Source: a virus. From it: a stretch of 36,273 nt of DNA. The notes beneath the pieces were generated by a model that was given only the letters and a program-made list of their open reading frames with translations, made no database searches and was not told the DNA's origin. The stretch is from IMG/VR virus record IMGVR_UViG_3300042898_000958. One strand, given 5' to 3'. How positions within the stretch are numbered: position 1 is the stretch's first letter; each line of letters begins with the position of its first letter. Of this stretch, positions 10,615-28,442 are shown piece by piece. Position numbers and translations under genes: made by a program.

Positions 10615-12579
10615 TTATTTACGTTTAACTAATTCCGCGTTCCAAATATGCCTACAATAAGGCACGTTTACATTCATGTTAGGGTCGTGATACCATCCAC
10701 CTCTACGACTAAATGCATCATAATTTGGGATACCATACACCTGCCCTAGCTCGTCACCTATTTTGTCAATCTCTTCACGTGTAAAGTAACGTTGGTTATC
10801 CATCATAGCTTGACAAAAATCTCTACTCTCACCAATTAAAGCAGGTGCATCTGGTCGCAATCCATAGCGGTAACGAATAAACAAATCTTTAAACGTTGGA
10901 ACTTTTGCATCCTCACCTTTTGCCGTTGCAATCTGTCCGCCTTTCCCTACTTCTACTAATCCATCGGCTGCTAATGTTTCTAATGCATTACTTACAGCCG
11001 TTTTATCTATCTTTAAAACTTTGCCTATTGATTCAACTGTTATGTTAGGTGTCTTTTTAATCAAATCTAAAACGCCCTGCTCTACTTTATCAAGTGCAAA
11101 ATCTTGTTTGCCAAACACAAATTTTTTATGTTTAACCAACTCAAACTTTTCAACTGGCTCACCATACTTTAAAAACACTTCAATGTCTAGGCTGTCATCT
11201 GATTGGCTGTTAAAGTGCGAACACTTGCTAAATGCTGCTCCCGTTGCGGAATCTGTTGCTACTATATCACCGCCCTCAACAGGTGGTCTATTAATTATTG
11301 CACGAACTTCATTTTTCGTCAAGTTATTTAACACCTTAGTAGCAACCAATGGGCTTAATGCGTTTAAGTCATCTACTACGCTTGAAATTTGCGCCTTAGT
11401 ATCTAATGGCTCACGTCCTACTATCTCCCTCATCTCATCTTTAGTTAAGATACTCATTAAAGTAGCTTCACCAAATGAAGGCATGATAGGCTCAACAGGT
11501 ATAATACTTAATCTACCTTTAACTGGTGCGAATAAGTTGTATATCTTTTCTTGTACTTTTTGACGTGGTGTAACGTATGTATTTTGAAACAAATTAAACG
11601 CATCAACCATTTCGTTTCTGCCACCTAATTGCCCCTCTACACGAACACCAAATAACATAGGTGAAGTTATTTTATGCCCTACAAATATCTCTTGCTGTAT
11701 CGTCTCATTTAATGCGTTGTATTTGTCCGCAAAATCTCCAGCCCCTAAATCTAAGATCTCTGGTACACGTGTAACATCATCCACAAAATCAATTAAGAAT
11801 ACACCAGCTTTATCTGTTGGTGCAAACTTAGCTTTCATTTTATTTTCTACACTCTTAATCTCGTCATCATTTGGAACTCCATTTTTGAAAACAATCATTT
11901 TAGATCCTTTAAATCCGTTTTGGATTTCGGCTCGGTGAAAGTTAGCTATTTCAGCATCTGTTATAATTGAAGGAACTGCCCCAATATAATCAGGTAAAGT
12001 GTATACGTCTAAATTCGGACGATATGTTTTGTAGTAAAATAGTGATTCTTTTGCTTTGGTTTCAGGTTCCCATGCTGGATAAGTGTAATCTATTTTAGGT
12101 CTTGAATTTTCGCTGCCATCCTCATTTATCCAATCATCACTAATATAAAAATTAGTATTATCTTCGTTTGAACGAACCTTGCAATAATCTATGTGGGATA
12201 TGTAATTCTTTTTCTTGTCCTTAGACTTTGTTACCTTTAAATAACAACCATTAAACAGCTCCACGTCTAATGTAGTCTTTGCCAATAAATCGTCAAGAGT
12301 TTCATATGGGTTAGGACTATCAACGTATGTTTTTAATAACGCTTGCTCTTCGCCTTCCATGCCGTTGGCGTTAAACGTAAAGCCTTGCCCTTTAATGTAC
12401 AACTGTTTATTGGTTATAATAGCGTTATGTTTTGCGCTTCGATTAAACAATAAAACGAGGTACTGGGGATAGTCATTTGTTTCACCGTACTTAACCCAAT
12501 CTTCACCTCTTACCTCGACAAATGTAGGTACTTTATCGTTTGAGAATTTTACGTTTATTAGCGTGTTATTGTAAGCCAT
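10615..12579 (-). CDS. Portal protein fused to a winged-helix segment and a MuF/SPP1-gp7-like C-terminal domain
   Basis: The N-terminal WVKYGETNDYPQYL...SAKHNAIITNKQLYIKGQG is portal-like. Residues ~503-544 (VLDLIKKTPNITVESIGKVLKIDKTAVSNALETLAADGLVEV) are MarR-type wHTH-like. The C-terminus (FCQAMM...YFTREEI...RRGGWYH...PYCRHIW) is MuF-like. Confidence 0.65.
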   Translation of the reverse strand: MAYNNTLINVKFSNDKVPTFVEVRGEDWVKYGETNDYPQYLVLLFNRSAKHNAIITNKQLYIKGQGFTFNANGMEGEEQALLKTYVDSPNPYETLDDLLAKTTLDVELFNGCYLKVTKSKDKKKNYISHIDYCKVRSNEDNTNFYISDDWINEDGSENSRPKIDYTYPAWEPETKAKESLFYYKTYRPNLDVYTLPDYIGAVPSIITDAEIANFHRAEIQNGFKGSKMIVFKNGVPNDDEIKSVENKMKAKFAPTDKAGVFLIDFVDDVTRVPEILDLGAGDFADKYNALNETIQQEIFVGHKITSPMLFGVRVEGQLGGRNEMVDAFNLFQNTYVTPRQKVQEKIYNLFAPVKGRLSIIPVEPIMPSFGEATLMSILTKDEMREIVGREPLDTKAQISSVVDDLNALSPLVATKVLNNLTKNEVRAIINRPPVEGGDIVATDSATGAAFSKCSHFNSQSDDSLDIEVFLKYGEPVEKFELVKHKKFVFGKQDFALDKVEQGVLDLIKKTPNITVESIGKVLKIDKTAVSNALETLAADGLVEVGKGGQIATAKGEDAKVPTFKDLFIRYRYGLRPDAPALIGESRDFCQAMMDNQRYFTREEIDKIGDELGQVYGIPNYDAFSRRGGWYHDPNMNVNVPYCRHIWNAELVKRK

Positions 12580-22760: not shown

Positions 22761-23942
22761 CTATACGTTAAGTAAGGCGTATTTGCCCCGTGGACGGTTG
22801 TTAAGTTTGTTTAGCGCAAAGTATCGCATACTGTCAATTGCGTGATTAGAATGGTCAACAGGCTTGCCCGTCAACTTACCGTCTTTATCGGTTTCCCATT
22901 GGTAGGCTCGCAGTTCTTTAATTAAATTTGTAGAGTTTTTTGTTACGTTTAATTGGTAACGCTTTAAGATGTCTATCCCCATCTTAATACTGTCATGTCC
23001 TTTCTGTGCTGGGTGAGTGTTAAAACCTTGTAGCCTTAATTCGTTGATTGACTTAGGCTCTGCACTATCACATATAATCTCATAAGGTCTTTGAATGTTA
23101 AACGCCTTTAACCTATTGCCTATCTCGTTATTGTTGAGATTTGTTTGGTAGAGTAGTTCGTCAATGTACAGCTCATTATCCATCATGTAAATAGCTACTA
23201 ATGTGGTAGGGTCATTTGTATATCCAAAATCCATCCCGTACCCTAATAACTTTGCATCACTTGGTATTGTGTCTATCTGTCTCCATTCGTCAAACACTAC
23301 ACCTTGTAAGCTACCTACCTCACCTAAGCCGTAAACACGCCACCAATTACTCCAATAACTTGATGTGGTTGCTTTTGTTTGTGCGCTCTCTATCTCCTTT
23401 ATAATGCTCTCAGATAGTGCCTCATTGTCTTTATACGTCAATACTATGTACTCGCTATCCTCATCTCGCATTAATTCGGTATGCGCCCAAAATTCAGATG
23501 TTGGGTTATAGTCTATCCAAATCTCATCGCTTGTCCGTATTGCTAATTGGTGATAGCTTTCAAAACTAATATTGTTCGCCTCGTTTATGTAAAGAATGTT
23601 ACGCCTTGCACCTCTTAACTTGCTTTCTTGTTCTGCACTAAAGAACTCAATGTATGATCCGTTTGTGAACTTATAGGTTAATAAAGTCCTATTCCAATTT
23701 GAATCAATGAACCTACCAGTCCAATCCATTATTTTTAGAAAGTCCTTTATTGCACCCCTGCGAAGATGGGGGATAGTTTCACTCACTACGCTTATTTCGA
23801 GGCGTGGTGTCTTCGCTGCTTTGTCAATAAGTATAGGTATGATGCCAAATGTTTTACCCGCACTTGTTCCGCCCTGCACTATCCTTTTTCGTTTAGATAA
23901 TGCCCTTAGTTTTTTAATTGCTGTTGTGTACCTAAATGCCAT
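22761..23942 (-). CDS. terL: Terminase large subunit (PBSX/XtmB-like)
   Basis: Walker A GGTSAGKT, Walker B-like ILYINE, and nuclease-half motifs (GMDFGY, ICDSAEP, HAIDSMRY). Confidence 0.9.
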   Translation of the reverse strand: MAFRYTTAIKKLRALSKRKRIVQGGTSAGKTFGIIPILIDKAAKTPRLEISVVSETIPHLRRGAIKDFLKIMDWTGRFIDSNWNRTLLTYKFTNGSYIEFFSAEQESKLRGARRNILYINEANNISFESYHQLAIRTSDEIWIDYNPTSEFWAHTELMRDEDSEYIVLTYKDNEALSESIIKEIESAQTKATTSSYWSNWWRVYGLGEVGSLQGVVFDEWRQIDTIPSDAKLLGYGMDFGYTNDPTTLVAIYMMDNELYIDELLYQTNLNNNEIGNRLKAFNIQRPYEIICDSAEPKSINELRLQGFNTHPAQKGHDSIKMGIDILKRYQLNVTKNSTNLIKELRAYQWETDKDGKLTGKPVDHSNHAIDSMRYFALNKLNNRPRGKYALLNV

Positions 23943-23980: not shown

Positions 23981-24334
23981 TTATTTTTCATCTCCAAATA
24001 ATGGCTGCTCGATGTTGATGTTCTTATTCTCGGTCTTGGTTGATGCTATTCGGTGGTATTCTTCCTCCGTTCCTATCAGCTTATACAGTGCCATTTGAGT
24101 CAATGGGTTGTTACCGTTGTACCACTTGTTACGCAGTCCGTTCTTAATATCAATCTTGTTTTTATCAAGTGCCTCTTTTATAGTGTTGTATTCGTTGCTT
24201 TCGACTTCAAAGAATCTATAAAAAGTTGTCTTATCACAAGGCAATAAAGTCACCACATCCTCAATAAAGAATAGTTTTTTCTTTTCTATTAACTCAAGTG
24301 CTTGTTGGTATATTTTAGTTCTGTCGTATGCCAT
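23981..24334 (-). CDS. terS: Terminase small subunit (HTH type)
   Basis: It lies directly upstream of terL. DVVTLLPCDKTTFYRFF is an HTH, and ...LTQMALYKLIGTEEEY is TerS-like. The ATG at 24334 is 5 nt after the upstream stop; the track start at 24352 is TTG. Confidence 0.55.
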   Translation of the reverse strand: MAYDRTKIYQQALELIEKKKLFFIEDVVTLLPCDKTTFYRFFEVESNEYNTIKEALDKNKIDIKNGLRNKWYNGNNPLTQMALYKLIGTEEEYHRIASTKTENKNINIEQPLFGDEK

Positions 24335-24338
24335 AATG

Positions 24339-25460
24339 CTAATGATATTCAAAATTAAAAGTTTTTACTCCATTTTCTCTAAATCCTCCACGTCTTGTCA
24401 TAGAACCGCCTGTTTTCATTTTGCCCATTAATCTTGTTTGTCCTAAAAATATCCATTCTTTTTGTTTTTTCATTGCTTTAAATACTGGAATTGATGAAAA
24501 TTTTGCCATTATTCTGCAATCAATTTTTTTGTTTAATAAATTTGATGTTTCATTTATTAATTTAATTCCTAATCCTAATCCATTATAATCAGGATGAACA
24601 ACTGTTCTATTTGAATGAAATATTATTTTTGTTCCTTTTTTGTGTGGTGTATAATTAGCAAAACATTGAAAACCTATTTGATTATCACCATGAAATAAAC
24701 CATACATATATATTTTACCTCCGGGCAATAATTCACTTAAATAATGATATTTGCTAAAATATTTCCATGTTTCTCTTCCAACTTCTTTAATTGTAAATTC
24801 GAGTTGTTCTCGTTTATTAAAAAAAAAATCCTCCGATTTTGGAAGTTCAAATATTTGTTTATTACAATCAATCATCCAATCTGGTTTAACCCATTCTAAT
24901 ATATCATAATGACAACTTAATAAAATAATTTTTTTGTTGTGTTTTTTAGCAAATTTATATAAACATAAACTCATTGCTTTTGCAACTGTTCTATCTACTA
25001 CACTTGTCCATTCATCAATGCAAACAAAATCATTTTTACACATTAAATAGGCTGCTTCTGCTCTTGCTTTTTGTCCATTGCTTAATGTTTTTATTGGTCT
25101 TAACCAACATGTTACAGAATTTAAACCAATTCCATTTAAAATATTTGCACAATCTTCATATGAATATTCATTTGGTAATTGTTCTATAATTGGTAAATTT
25201 TCATTTAAGGACAAATCAAATATATTTTCGCCAAATAAATGTTTTATTAAAGTTGTTTTACCGCTTCCAGATGCGCCATAAATCAATCCAATATTCCAAT
25301 TTAATGGTAAATTTATATTATCAATTTTTAAATGATGTATTGATTTTTTATTTACATCAATATCTAAACTATTAGCTGCTGCTTGACATCTAAAAGAATT
25401 AAATACATCACTTTTTAATGTAAAATTTATTTGTTTAGGTATTATTGAACTATTTTGCAT
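24339..25460 (-). CDS. ABC-type ATPase fused to a GNAT-like acetyltransferase domain
   Basis: Walker A GASGSGKTT, signature LSNGQKARAEAA, Walker B FVCIDEWTSVVD and H-loop LLSCHYD. The C-terminal ~170 aa carries IGFQCF...VVHPDYNGLGLGIKLINE (GNAT motif A-like). Sampled G+C is about 24%. Confidence 0.7.
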   Translation of the reverse strand: MQNSSIIPKQINFTLKSDVFNSFRCQAAANSLDIDVNKKSIHHLKIDNINLPLNWNIGLIYGASGSGKTTLIKHLFGENIFDLSLNENLPIIEQLPNEYSYEDCANILNGIGLNSVTCWLRPIKTLSNGQKARAEAAYLMCKNDFVCIDEWTSVVDRTVAKAMSLCLYKFAKKHNKKIILLSCHYDILEWVKPDWMIDCNKQIFELPKSEDFFFNKREQLEFTIKEVGRETWKYFSKYHYLSELLPGGKIYMYGLFHGDNQIGFQCFANYTPHKKGTKIIFHSNRTVVHPDYNGLGLGIKLINETSNLLNKKIDCRIMAKFSSIPVFKAMKKQKEWIFLGQTRLMGKMKTGGSMTRRGGFRENGVKTFNFEYH

Positions 25461-25969
25461 ATTAATCCTTCGTTTGTTAATTTTTCATACCATTCTTGGC
25501 AATGTTTTTCATTTTCAAATTCTATATTTAAAAACCATTTTTCATTATTTTCATATCCGCTTGGTATTATTTCTTCATATTCTGGTATAACTGGCAAATC
25601 CAAACCCCATTCAACTAATAACTCTTCATCCCAATCATTCGCTAAGTCATCCCAATTCCACTCTCCAAAACCTACGTTGTCCTTGATTATAAATTCTTTC
25701 TTTTGGTCTTCGGTTAAGTCTTTTGCAAAAATAGTTGGCACATCTTTTAATCCTAATTCTTGGCAGGCTTTCAATCTCATGTTGCCACCTAATACGATAT
25801 TGTTTTCATCTATAACAATAGGTCGCAGTTCTAACATTTGCGGAAAGTCTTTTATTGATTGTACTAACTTTTTAAACTTGTCATCCTTAATCAAACGTGG
25901 ATTGTTTGGATTAACTTTTACTTCGTTTATTGCTACCTTTGTTATTTTCATATCTTCGTTATTTAACAT
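25442..25969 (-). CDS. ParB/Srx N-terminal-domain protein
   Basis: VKVNPNNPRLI...LVQSIKDFPQMLELRPIVID..NIVLGGNMRLKACQELGL is ParB box I/II-like (G..R..A). The first ATG is at 25969; an alternative ATG is at 25951 and a TTG at 26008. The 3' end overlaps the ATPase gene by 19 nt. Confidence 0.7.
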   Translation of the reverse strand: MLNNEDMKITKVAINEVKVNPNNPRLIKDDKFKKLVQSIKDFPQMLELRPIVIDENNIVLGGNMRLKACQELGLKDVPTIFAKDLTEDQKKEFIIKDNVGFGEWNWDDLANDWDEELLVEWGLDLPVIPEYEEIIPSGYENNEKWFLNIEFENEKHCQEWYEKLTNEGLICKIVQ

Positions 25970-26036
25970 ACGCCTCGAATAGTTCCCACATCTTTTCGGG
26001 CGTTTCAATGTTCTTTGTTCCGTGTGGTCTTGCCAT
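25959..26036 (-). pseudogene. 25-codon ORF resembling the N-terminus of a gp3/TerS-type packaging protein (possible remnant)
   Basis: MARPHGTKNIETPEKMWELFEAYVK then TAA. It starts 1 nt after the stop of the upstream gene. The motif RP....tPE.mw.lF..Y is typical of small-terminase N-termini as I recall them. Confidence 0.3.
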
Positions 26037-26678: not shown

Positions 26679-26923
26679 AAAATAGTTAGTATTCGTTTGG
26701 TTATTATTGCAAAGTAAGCAGCCCATCCACCGTATGCAAATGGCTCTAATATCTTTAAATCGTTAACAAATATACTTAAAATAAAATAAAGCGTTACAAC
26801 CCAAAATGATAAACAAACATTGCAATTAAACGGTTTAAAGTTTATCCATTTTGGTAGTTGAGTAAGTGAAAAAAAAGAGGTGAACACCATTGATACACCT
26901 ATTGATGTTATTATTTCTGTCAT
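26675..26923 (-). CDS. Small integral membrane protein (~3 TMD)
   Basis: Hydrophobic throughout (IGVSMVFTSFFSL, LSFWVVTLYFILSIF, GGWAAYFAII). It is ATGA-coupled on both sides. Confidence 0.6.
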   Translation of the reverse strand: MTEIITSIGVSMVFTSFFSLTQLPKWINFKPFNCNVCLSFWVVTLYFILSIFVNDLKILEPFAYGGWAAYFAIITKRILTIL

Positions 26924-27990
26924 TTTAATATGTCGTTATATGCTTCTAATCGTTTATTTGCTACTATTTTAATATGATACTGCTGGACGTCTTCGTGCAA
27001 CTGATTTGCTAAGTCTTCAACCATCGAACGGTTTTTAATTAGTTTAGTCATTTGAGTATACCAACCTTTTTTATTTTGAACCTTTAAACAGTTAGCATTG
27101 GTTAACATATCTGAATAAGGTTCAACGTCTGATACTATTGCTGCTTTCTTTTTAAAGCCTGATTCTAATAACTTTAGATTTGACTTTAGATTGTTAAACC
27201 TGTTATCCCTTAAAGGTATTAATGATACATCTATAAGATCGTAAAAGTTAGCATAATTAAACACATCTGTTGCTGCGAATGTGGCAAATATACTTTCATT
27301 TGCTATTCCTTTACAGCTTAATGCTCCTAATATTTGATTTGAGTAAGTATCTTTTTTTTCATGCCCACCATAAACGAAATTAAACCTTGTGTTAAATTCG
27401 GATTTATAAAGACTGTAAAGGCTATCATGCATCAACATAACGTCCTCAAAGTGAGTGATACTTCCACTCCAGCCAAATGTAACATGTTTATTTTGCGTTG
27501 GTTTGTTTGCAAATTGATCATGTGCAGGATTTATCCCATTGGGTACTACATATATATTTCTATTCCCCGTTTCTGAACGTATCACATCGGCTATCTTATC
27601 GTGAGTAGTTGTTATAGCATCAGCGTGCATTAAGCCAAAGAATATACGCTCTGCATGCTTTTCTTTAGTGTACTTTTGGTATAGTATATGCCATTGAGGG
27701 ATCCTGTAATCATCATCTATATCAATAACTAATTTTGCACCGCTTTGTTTGATTCTAGTCATTATAGCCTGCGAATCACCAACCCTACTAATGTAACGAT
27801 TAACAACTACTAAATCAAATTGGCTAAAAAACTCAACGGTCACATCTTCGATTGAATTGATTTGTGAAATTTCAATATCATTGGCTAAATAGTTATGAGG
27901 TGTAAGTAGCCTATGATAGTCTACACCTGAGTAATTTGCTTTTTCAAAGTTATTCTTTGGACCTGATGGAATTACTACTAATACTTTCAT
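26920..27990 (-). CDS. Glycosyltransferase (GT-B fold, GT1/GT4-like)
   Basis: 356 aa. VLVVIPSG..., IDIDDDY, VVPNGINP, and the C-terminal SNLKLLESGFKKKAAIVSD resemble the EX7E region of retaining GT-B enzymes. Confidence 0.5.
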   Translation of the reverse strand: MKVLVVIPSGPKNNFEKANYSGVDYHRLLTPHNYLANDIEISQINSIEDVTVEFFSQFDLVVVNRYISRVGDSQAIMTRIKQSGAKLVIDIDDDYRIPQWHILYQKYTKEKHAERIFFGLMHADAITTTHDKIADVIRSETGNRNIYVVPNGINPAHDQFANKPTQNKHVTFGWSGSITHFEDVMLMHDSLYSLYKSEFNTRFNFVYGGHEKKDTYSNQILGALSCKGIANESIFATFAATDVFNYANFYDLIDVSLIPLRDNRFNNLKSNLKLLESGFKKKAAIVSDVEPYSDMLTNANCLKVQNKKGWYTQMTKLIKNRSMVEDLANQLHEDVQQYHIKIVANKRLEAYNDILK

Positions 27991-28442
27991 CTTATGTTTT
28001 TTAGTTTTTCTTTTACTGAGCGTAATGCCGAATAACTTATGCCAGTTTCTTTTTGAACCTTTTTCATGTTTCCAAGTTTCGTATAGAGTATTGTTATTCT
28101 GTTTTCAAACTCGCTCATGCTTAGCATAATGTCTTCAACCGTATTTAGGCTGTCTGTTTCAGTTGTTTCAATTTCTATCAAGTGAAGTTTCTCAATCGGT
28201 ATATCATATTCTTTACTGAAAAGTTTACCTATCTTTCCATTTTTACTTATTGTATTCTTTGCCACACAATAAAACCATATAGGCAAATGTTGTTCACTTG
28301 GTAGCCTTTCTTCTTTAATAGTTAAAATTTGTTCGCACACTTCTTGAAACAAATCGTCCGCAAAGTCACGTGATATAGATACACATATACGCTTATAATT
28401 GCTATTGCTAATAATCTTTTCTATGAGTTGATGCCTATACAC
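27987..28442 (-). CDS. ECF-type sigma-70 family sigma factor
   Basis: Region 2-like DFADDLFQEVCEQIL...WFYCVAKNTI, and region 4 HTH LGNMKKVQKETGISYSALRSVKEKL. GTG start. Confidence 0.6.
   Translation of the reverse strand: MYRHQLIEKIISNSNYKRICVSISRDFADDLFQEVCEQILTIKEERLPSEQHLPIWFYCVAKNTISKNGKIGKLFSKEYDIPIEKLHLIEIETTETDSLNTVEDIMLSMSEFENRITILYTKLGNMKKVQKETGISYSALRSVKEKLKNIR

Follow-up and report, generated by a model that had tools for sequence, protein, structure and literature searches.

The subject of this study is a pair of adjacent genes in a 36,273-nucleotide (nt) stretch of viral DNA, IMG/VR record IMGVR_UViG_3300042898_000958. The whole stretch is called the window below, and all coordinates refer to it unless a related locus is named. 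The first gene encodes a short ParB-like protein and the second a predicted fusion of an ABC ATPase domain with a GNAT-type acyltransferase domain, ABC::GNAT. Every gene of the window lies on the minus strand, and in the direction of transcription the order around the pair is glycosyltransferase, several small open reading frames (ORFs), ParB-like, ABC::GNAT, TerS-like and TerL, see Table 1.

The gene pair and its proteins

A first-pass annotation of this DNA had proposed the pair of minus-strand ORFs, and the pair stands. The start given for the ParB-like gene, 25969 (or 26008), does not: an alignment with at least 40 homologues puts the ATG at 25951 (MKITKV...). The 19-nt overlap between the two ORFs, also proposed there, is real, with the downstream ATG at 25460 and a Shine-Dalgarno-like GAAGGA element just 5' of it. 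In related loci junction overlaps of 19, 4, 22 or 1 nt recur. The overlap together with the upstream GAAGGA suggests that the two genes are translationally coupled.

The N-terminal domain of the fusion protein matches Pfam ABC_tran with an E-value of 6e-8 and 33.8 bits (cut-off 25). Its motifs follow in the order Walker A (GASGSGKTT), Q94, LSNGQ, Walker B (IDEW, with E150), D-loop (TSVVDR) and H-loop (H184). In 43 close relatives Walker A (G62-T70), Q94, LSNGQ (126-130), D149-E150, TSVVDR and H184 are invariant or nearly so, and in 14 distant relatives (26-57% identity) most ABC motifs are still invariant, with variation at Q94, N128 and Q130. From these motifs the ABC ATPase domain is predicted to be catalytically complete, as had been read from the sequence at first. 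In one member of the family, the 715-residue protein P0259, a Hint and LAGLIDADG intein lies within the ABC domain.

The AlphaFold2 model of the enzyme (predicted local distance difference test, pLDDT, 80.7) consists of two domains with a low-confidence linker at residues 211-218. A Foldseek search of the Protein Data Bank (PDB) with the whole model finds ABC nucleotide-binding domains with probability 1.00. For residues 216-373 modelled alone (pLDDT 79.7, predicted template modelling score 0.75), every match shown is a GNAT structure, with probability 1.00 and a template modelling score of ~0.5-0.64, which bears out the earlier suggestion of a C-terminal GNAT-type domain. At the sequence level the window protein lies below the Pfam GNAT cut-offs (Acetyltransf_10, 19.7 bits vs 23.6), and the distant members Jace gp86 and P12024S gp24 exceed the Acetyltransf_1 cut-off of 20.7 with 35.9 and 37.4 bits. 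The family is without a solved structure, and the PDB sequences closest to it, from ABC-F and RLI proteins, give weak E-values.

The GNAT domain carries the motif-A loop HPDYNGLGLG, of the form N-x-x-G-x-G, with N293-G-L-G296-L-G298 in the window protein; the general form of this pyrophosphate-binding loop in GNATs is Q/R-x-x-G-x-G/A. In relatives of 26-57% identity the first position is Q, V or N, G294 and G296 are invariant and G298 is at least 90% conserved. Across the distant relatives R285, V287, P290, G294 and G296 are the invariant residues of this domain. The loop suggests acyl-CoA as the donor of the predicted acyltransferase.

The partner, a 169-residue protein, has a single Pfam match, ParB_N (E-value 3.7e-8, 33.7 bits, cut-off 26.3), in agreement with the N-terminal ParB domain annotated before. 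It consists of an N-terminal domain of the nucleotide-binding type (NPR, GGNMR, KDN), an acidic, tryptophan-rich linker and a C-terminal mini-domain. The box I arginine (NPR), box II (GGNMR) and the box III asparagine (KDN) are conserved in the ParB alignment; in the window protein the glutamate of GERR is replaced by asparagine. The best PHROG match is the ParB region of ParB-DNA-methyltransferase fusions (phrog_498, 5e-30), followed by ParB-like partition proteins, and in PADLOC the protein matches the ParB part of the MTase_II model. The NCBIfam model parB_part gives 27.5 against a cut-off of 58.45.

Canonical ParABS partition can be ruled out. The N-terminal nucleotide-binding fold is common to both, but Pfam detects neither a helix-turn-helix (HTH) nor a canonical C-terminal dimerisation domain in the window ParB, the window has no gene for a deviant Walker A ParA ATPase, and no parS-like repeat or palindrome lies nearby. 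The genomic context is also that of phage packaging and replication. This agrees with the first-pass view that the pair is unlike ParA-type systems.

All ParB partners of the enzyme share, in the alignment, a C-terminal stretch of about 32-35 residues that ends at the gene junction, whatever the subtype of their N-terminal domain. There are at least two kinds of N-terminal domain: 'NPRLIKDDKF...GGNMR', as in the window, and 'NNSRTH...AGHGR', as in ParB-methyltransferase fusions. We built a hidden Markov model (HMM) from the ParB C-termini alone and searched 11,932 ORFs with it. Free-standing ORFs of 42-54 codons directly 5' of ABC::GNAT match this model, with an independent E-value (iE) of 3e-5 in Burkholderia phage phiE255, 9e-9 in Pseudomonas phage Komp_PAO1_1 and 2e-4 in a Porphyromonas phage/prophage. 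Further, 4 of the best 150 representatives (of 1455 found in the profile search described below) are single-chain ParB::mini-domain::ABC::GNAT fusions. In the window the mini-domain also shares the low GC at third codon positions (GC3) of the enzyme gene. As the free-standing ORFs, the fusions and the shared GC3 agree, we infer that the ABC::GNAT enzyme is bound through the mini-domain, a proposed docking module for which the ParB N-domain would be an exchangeable head. One Porphyromonas record labels the micro-ORF 'acr candidate', an unverified annotation. The micro-ORF has no similarity to Com of Mu.

The composition of the pair is distinct. Mean GC is 35.0% over the window but 25.4% in the ABC::GNAT gene (z = -4.0), which makes this gene the 1.1-kb block poorest in GC; just 0.4% of equally long stretches fall below it, each of them overlapping the gene. 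Its GC3 is 10.7%, vs 23-43% in the other genes. The foreign composition noted at first sight is thereby confirmed, and so is the claim that the low-GC block starts inside the 3' end of the ParB gene: GC3 drops around ParB codon 118 and rises again at the TerS-like gene (0.02-0.17 within the block; ParB N-domain 0.30-0.43, TerS-like gene 0.33-0.57). The ABC::GNAT gene also lies 3-9 GC points under its flanks in most related loci. This deficit, in the window and elsewhere, fits a cassette that moves between phages, and the low-GC block is probably such a horizontally exchanged cassette.

Table 1. Positions of the gene pair, its parts, neighbouring genes and related elements in other loci (L numbers denote related loci, with positions in the locus).
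Feature	Position	Strand	Evidence
ParB/Srx-type protein, 169 aa	25442..25951	-	Pfam ParB_N, PHROG matches, start from homologue alignment
ParB C-terminal mini-domain, ~residues 136-169, WFLNIEFENEKHCQEWYEKLTNEGLICKIVQ	25445..25546	-	Conserved across ParB partners; C-terminus HMM
Overlap of ParB stop and ABC::GNAT start, 19 nt	25442..25460	-	Sequence; GAAGGA element upstream
ABC::GNAT fusion protein, 373 aa	24339..25460	-	
ABC ATPase nucleotide-binding domain, residues 1 to ~210	24831..25460	-	Pfam ABC_tran, invariant columns, AlphaFold2, Foldseek
Predicted GNAT-fold acyltransferase domain, residues ~219-373	24342..24806	-	Foldseek; sub-threshold Pfam; invariant residues
Low-GC, low-GC3 block: ParB linker, mini-domain and entire ABC::GNAT gene	24339..25600	-	
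Probable small terminase subunit (TerS-like), 117 aa, ATG 24334	23981..24334	-	Position; TerS-sized families in same slot
Large terminase subunit (TerL)	22761..23942	-	Pfam Terminase_3C 2.3e-17, Terminase_3 3.9e-10; phrog_2 2e-37
Glycosyltransferase	26920..27990	-	phrog_7162 2.5e-48; weak Pfam Glyco_transf_4
Free-standing mini-domain ORFs	L130 3229-3393; L131 3352-3501; L051 3373-3501		
Accessory enzymes, Jace gp87 and gp88	L036 5101-6212		
Accessory enzyme, Ligma gp3	L050 1805-2452		
Accessory enzyme, phiE255 gp30	L130 4508-5122		
Accessory enzyme, Porphyromonas	L051 4625-5098		

Relatives, linkage and genomic contexts

The family of the enzyme is very large. At E<=1e-5 it comprises 2103 clusters (90% identity), with lengths of 369-395 residues among the 120 matches listed. 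A profile search of 1.84 billion representatives (50% identity) gives 1455 proteins at E<=1e-10, and a scan of IMG/VR with a diverse alignment gives at least 600 stretches. By tblastn, 79 phage records match the window enzyme, at the top from Pasteurella (55% identity) and Leptospira (52%), and at lower identity from phages of Lactococcus, Streptococcus, Oenococcus, Gordonia, Arthrobacter, Porphyromonas, Pseudomonas and Burkholderia. The family is thus present in phages of at least five bacterial phyla.

The first-pass annotation placed the fusion outside any described system, and this part has to be given up. The window protein matches phrog_11143 over its full length (2.2e-77, residues 14-352 on profile positions 4-329 of 357), and several relatives bear the JGI name 'ABC-type ATPase with predicted acetyltransferase domain', which we take to be the name of COG2401. 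Further, a passage of Iyer et al. 2021 (PMC7824862), citing their work of 2013, describes an ABC ATPase-coupled GNAT, predicted but uncharacterised, that would acylate a DNA base. As far as that passage describes the predicted ABC ATPase-GNAT DNA-modification system (Iyer, Zhang, Burroughs & Aravind 2013), the window enzyme is of the same family and architecture, with no essential difference. The window pair is a typical ParB-linked member of this large, computationally described family. The annotation had also named beforehand what would speak against its proposal, and on these points we find an acetyltransferase fold, conserved linkage and no match to an experimentally characterised system.

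The example named in the same passage (PMC7824862) is Tenacibaculum phage pT24, whose protein is 39% identical to the window protein. In this jumbo phage an ORF of about 240 codons (BPT24_039, locus L052 3271-3993) overlaps the start of the split ABC/GNAT genes. It has no Pfam match, ParB signature or mini-domain, and it may be a different partner.

The linkage of the two genes is strongly conserved, as the proposal of a two-gene module requires. A ParB or mini-domain ORF ends at the start of ABC::GNAT in 89 of 132 loci, and the linkage holds in every locus where the enzyme is at least 45% identical to that of the window and upstream sequence is present. The linked loci span phages of Bacteroidota, Proteobacteria, Spirochaetes, Firmicutes and Actinobacteria. 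The pair is co-inherited. When neighbourhoods were clustered in 129 loci there was no third universally conserved gene, and a covalent third partner can be set aside. The other recurrent neighbours are two TerS-sized families directly downstream (51 loci) and TerL families (76 loci); terS/terL lie directly 3' in at least 60 loci, with differing terminase families. No membrane-protein family recurs in the top neighbour clusters of these 129 loci, and the neighbours in the window are ParB, TerS and TerL, which argues against transport. An ABC transporter can be dismissed, as there is no permease; the database labels 'iron siderophore transporter' and 'EcfA2' are name transfers.

Three genomic contexts can be distinguished. 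In the first, which includes the window and most loci, the enzyme is linked to ParB and lies directly upstream of terS/terL; in Gordonia phages the pair is genes 1 and 2 at the genome end. In the second, members of 30-40% identity without ParB or mini-domain lie among genes for DnaB, a YqaJ-type exonuclease, FEN, dUTPase and MazG. It spans about 30 loci (L035, L081-L129), with Nonlabens phage P12024S as an example. In the third, tail genes are followed by the micro-ORF, ABC::GNAT and then a Formyl_trans_N protein, as in the Mu-like phages phiE255 and Komp_PAO1_1 and in Porphyromonas prophages. In phiE255 and Komp_PAO1_1 it is tail-fibre and tail-fibre assembly genes that precede the micro-ORF. 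In Mu, gin and after it com-mom come behind the tail-fibre genes, and the resemblance of the third context to com-mom is positional only.

Some members have accessory enzymes next to them. Directly downstream in Gordonia phage Jace are an aspartate decarboxylase (2e-33) and a CoA-transferase III (2e-8), and proteins of the formyltransferase fold (Formyl_trans_N) adjoin the enzyme in Gordonia phage Ligma, phiE255 and a Porphyromonas phage. From these neighbours it seems that some members may transfer a group different from acetyl, or tailor the acyl group. The window has no accessory genes for acyl supply or formyl transfer, and its pair is a clean, compact example: two genes, without accessory enzymes.

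The mini-domain with its free form and fusions, the context classes, the GC3 boundary of the cassette and the acyl-donor neighbours may already have been described earlier. All but the last of these are the most useful leads for experiments.

Predicted function and its alternatives

We favour the reading that the pair is a phage nucleic-acid acylation system, in which, with the help of ParB and at the cost of ATP, an acyl group is transferred to a base of the replicated phage DNA before packaging. We give this a probability of roughly 50%. DNA is the preferred target because of the ParB fold, the replication and packaging neighbours, the position after tail-fibre genes and the acyl-supply genes. 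Among the three targets considered at the outset, a host factor, a nucleic acid or a defence protein, the context favours the nucleic acid.

In such a system the mini-domain would dock the ParB protein onto the enzyme. The ParB N-domain would then bring the complex to DNA or activate it there, as the ParB-like partners of phage thymine dioxygenases do. In ABC ATPases generally, ATP drives the head-to-tail closure of two ABC domains. Here ATP binding would close two ABC domains in the same way, and the dimer would clamp the DNA and present a base to the GNAT domains. The GNAT domain would move an acetyl or other acyl group from acyl-CoA onto an exocyclic amine, and ATP hydrolysis would reset the enzyme. 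Phage DNA would in this way receive its mark between replication and packaging and would withstand host restriction, as Mu DNA does with Mom. That the marking would precede packaging is suggested by the position of the genes at the boundary between replication and packaging genes.

Three groups of known enzymes are of help here. Mom of phage Mu is a GNAT-fold enzyme that modifies adenine in double-stranded DNA with Gly-tRNA, so that double-stranded DNA is an experimentally shown target of a GNAT (PMC13219725). It is a late-expressed accessory gene acting after replication, and the same is predicted for ABC::GNAT; ABC::GNAT also closes the late operon of the Mu-like phages, behind the tail-fibre genes, a position comparable to that of com-mom in Mu. 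However, Mom has neither an ATPase domain nor a ParB partner, and the motif-A loop of the window enzyme suggests an acyl-CoA donor rather than Gly-tRNA. Membership in the Mom family (PF25680) was rejected, with 13.7 bits against the Pfam cut-off of 27.1 and an hhalign probability of 0.1.

The second is TmcA/NAT10, an ATPase joined to a GNAT, which carries out the ATP-dependent N4-acetylation of cytidine in RNA and uses ATP hydrolysis to reach the base. The logic is shared: an NTPase is fused to a GNAT that acetylates the amine of a nucleobase with acetyl-CoA. In contrast to the window enzyme, its ATPase is of the RecD-like helicase type and not ABC, the substrate is tRNA or rRNA, and it is a cellular housekeeping enzyme without a ParB partner.

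The third group is made up of DNA-modifying enzymes that depend on ParB-like proteins. Beside the phage 5mYOX thymine dioxygenases, which act after replication, lies a short ParB-like protein without an obvious DNA-binding domain that is required for their activity (PMC13229309), and the window ParB is placed similarly. It is the ParB part of ParB-methyltransferase fusions that the window ParB matches best (phrog_498; PADLOC MTase_II). In these systems, which also include DpdB with DpdA, the catalytic partner is a dioxygenase, a methyltransferase or a transglycosylase, whereas in the window it is ABC::GNAT, and the C-terminal mini-domain is specific to the ParB/ABC::GNAT pairing.

A more specific proposal can be made tentatively, at odds somewhat short of even. 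The enzyme would be an ATP-dependent DNA acyltransferase and, next to Mom, the second class of GNAT working on double-stranded DNA. Its product would be an N-acyl base that has not been observed so far: acetyl in simple cassettes such as that of the window, and larger groups where genes for PanD/CoA-transferase or a formyltransferase are present. The mini-domain would be an obligatory adaptor to interchangeable ParB heads. If this is true, it is a new chemistry in the hypermodification of phage DNA and a new role for an ABC ATPase. Many phages, including dairy Lactococcus phages and Streptococcus pyogenes prophages, would then carry an unknown acylated DNA base. Such a base could affect restriction, sequencing and host range, and the enzyme could become a new tool for labelling DNA.

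Several observations weigh against DNA acylation. Our literature search found no experimental study on any family member, and no modified base is reported for phages that carry the system. About one quarter of the family members have neither ParB nor mini-domain, so that the fold can work without this partner. Box II of the ParB partners has N or H in place of the catalytic glutamate of chromosomal ParB, which makes the use of a nucleotide by ParB uncertain. The closest structures to the GNAT domain are generic protein and small-molecule acetyltransferases, with the Mom structure (8bv8) at rank 29 in Foldseek. The nearest sequence neighbours of the ABC domain are the translation factors ABC-F and RLI, which could point to tRNA or the ribosome. 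Finally, the work on Mom indicates that structure does not reveal which donor and which target a GNAT uses (PMC13219725).

Proteins are the first alternative target. The GNAT domain would acetylate a protein of the host or the phage, for example RNA polymerase, terminase, portal or a defence protein, with the ABC domain as an ATP-dependent gate and ParB as a regulator or scaffold, and the purpose would be host takeover or anti-defence. Among the top Foldseek neighbours are indeed NatA/Naa50, RimI and HP0935, which acetylate N-termini and ribosomal proteins, but the similarity is generic to the fold, at 9-17% identity. The constant adjacency of terS/terL would suit a packaging protein as target; however, the members without ParB lie in replication modules, and the known roles of the ParB fold are centred on DNA. 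Some phage GNATs are known to have host proteins as their substrates, Rac of phiKMV being one that a passage of PMC7824862 cites. On the other side, acyl-donor and formyltransferase neighbours are typical of hypermodification pathways and not of lysine acetylation. For defence, PADLOC returns partial matches at the level of the P-loop (mad3 residues 46-75 and similar) and no full-length match to known anti-phage defence models, so that a known defence or anti-defence system can be rejected. Altogether we consider a protein target unlikely.

Quite improbable in our view is an enzyme directed at RNA or translation. The ABC domain would engage tRNA or the ribosome and the GNAT domain would acetylate tRNA, aminoacyl-tRNA or rRNA, by the logic of TmcA/NAT10 or of GNAT toxins; alternatively, an aminoacyl-tRNA would be the acyl donor. 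The best sequence matches of the ABC domain, to ABC-F ribosomal-protection proteins and RLI/ABCE1, point this way, and the formyltransferase-fold neighbours recall Met-tRNA formyltransferase. Yet the ABC-F matches are weak (E-values of about 1e-7 to 1e-9, far under the family cut-offs) and cover the generic core only. The enzyme has a single nucleotide-binding domain, without the linker of ABC-F or the Fe-S domain of RLI. That the donor of Mom is Gly-tRNA (PMC13219725) would lend itself to the variant with an aminoacyl-tRNA donor, but the motif-A loop suits acyl-CoA, and the ParB partner and the genomic contexts indicate DNA.

Very improbable, finally, is an accessory role in packaging or partition, where ParB and the ATPase would be a non-canonical ParAB-like pair that organises DNA or delivers it to terminase and the GNAT domain would be regulatory or vestigial: the pair does lie directly 5' of terS/terL in most loci, whatever the terminase family, and opens the gene order at the genome end in Gordonia phages, but the motif-A residues are invariant across the family, which puts the GNAT domain under selection as an enzyme, the window ParB lacks an HTH and a parS-like repeat nearby, separate TerS genes are present, and other members are remote from terminase, behind tail fibres or in the midst of replication genes. 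We retain DNA acylation as the most probable function of the pair.

Neighbouring genes in the window

The TerS-like gene begins 4 nt past the stop of ABC::GNAT. It has no match in the family profile searches, and is a probable small terminase subunit because it lies upstream of TerL and TerS-sized families fill the same slot in 51 related loci. A scan for promoters and terminators gave nothing beyond shuffled expectation, and the phage collection searched held no relatives of the window at the DNA level.

A 25-codon ORF (MARPHGTKNIETPEKMWELFEAYVK) at 25958-26035 on the minus strand ends 6 nt before the ParB start. It may be spurious, since no relatives were found among the fetched loci, and the idea that it is the remnant of a split terS is unsupported.

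The glycosyltransferase gene lies about 1 kb upstream of the pair, and homologues of it are found upstream of the pair in two related contigs (L022 and L023); the substrate of this enzyme may be DNA or the cell surface. Further upstream, at 27987-28442 on the minus strand, an ORF of 151 codons has weak matches to sigma-70 region 2 and to DUF2089-HTH. It has no homologue among the fetched loci at E<=1e-4, and may encode a phage transcription factor upstream of the late genes.

Downstream of the pair, the portal gene (10615-12579, minus strand) lies about 10 kb beyond TerL, with the tape measure and other large structural genes in between. This order of genes from TerL to portal is unusual for a tailed phage.

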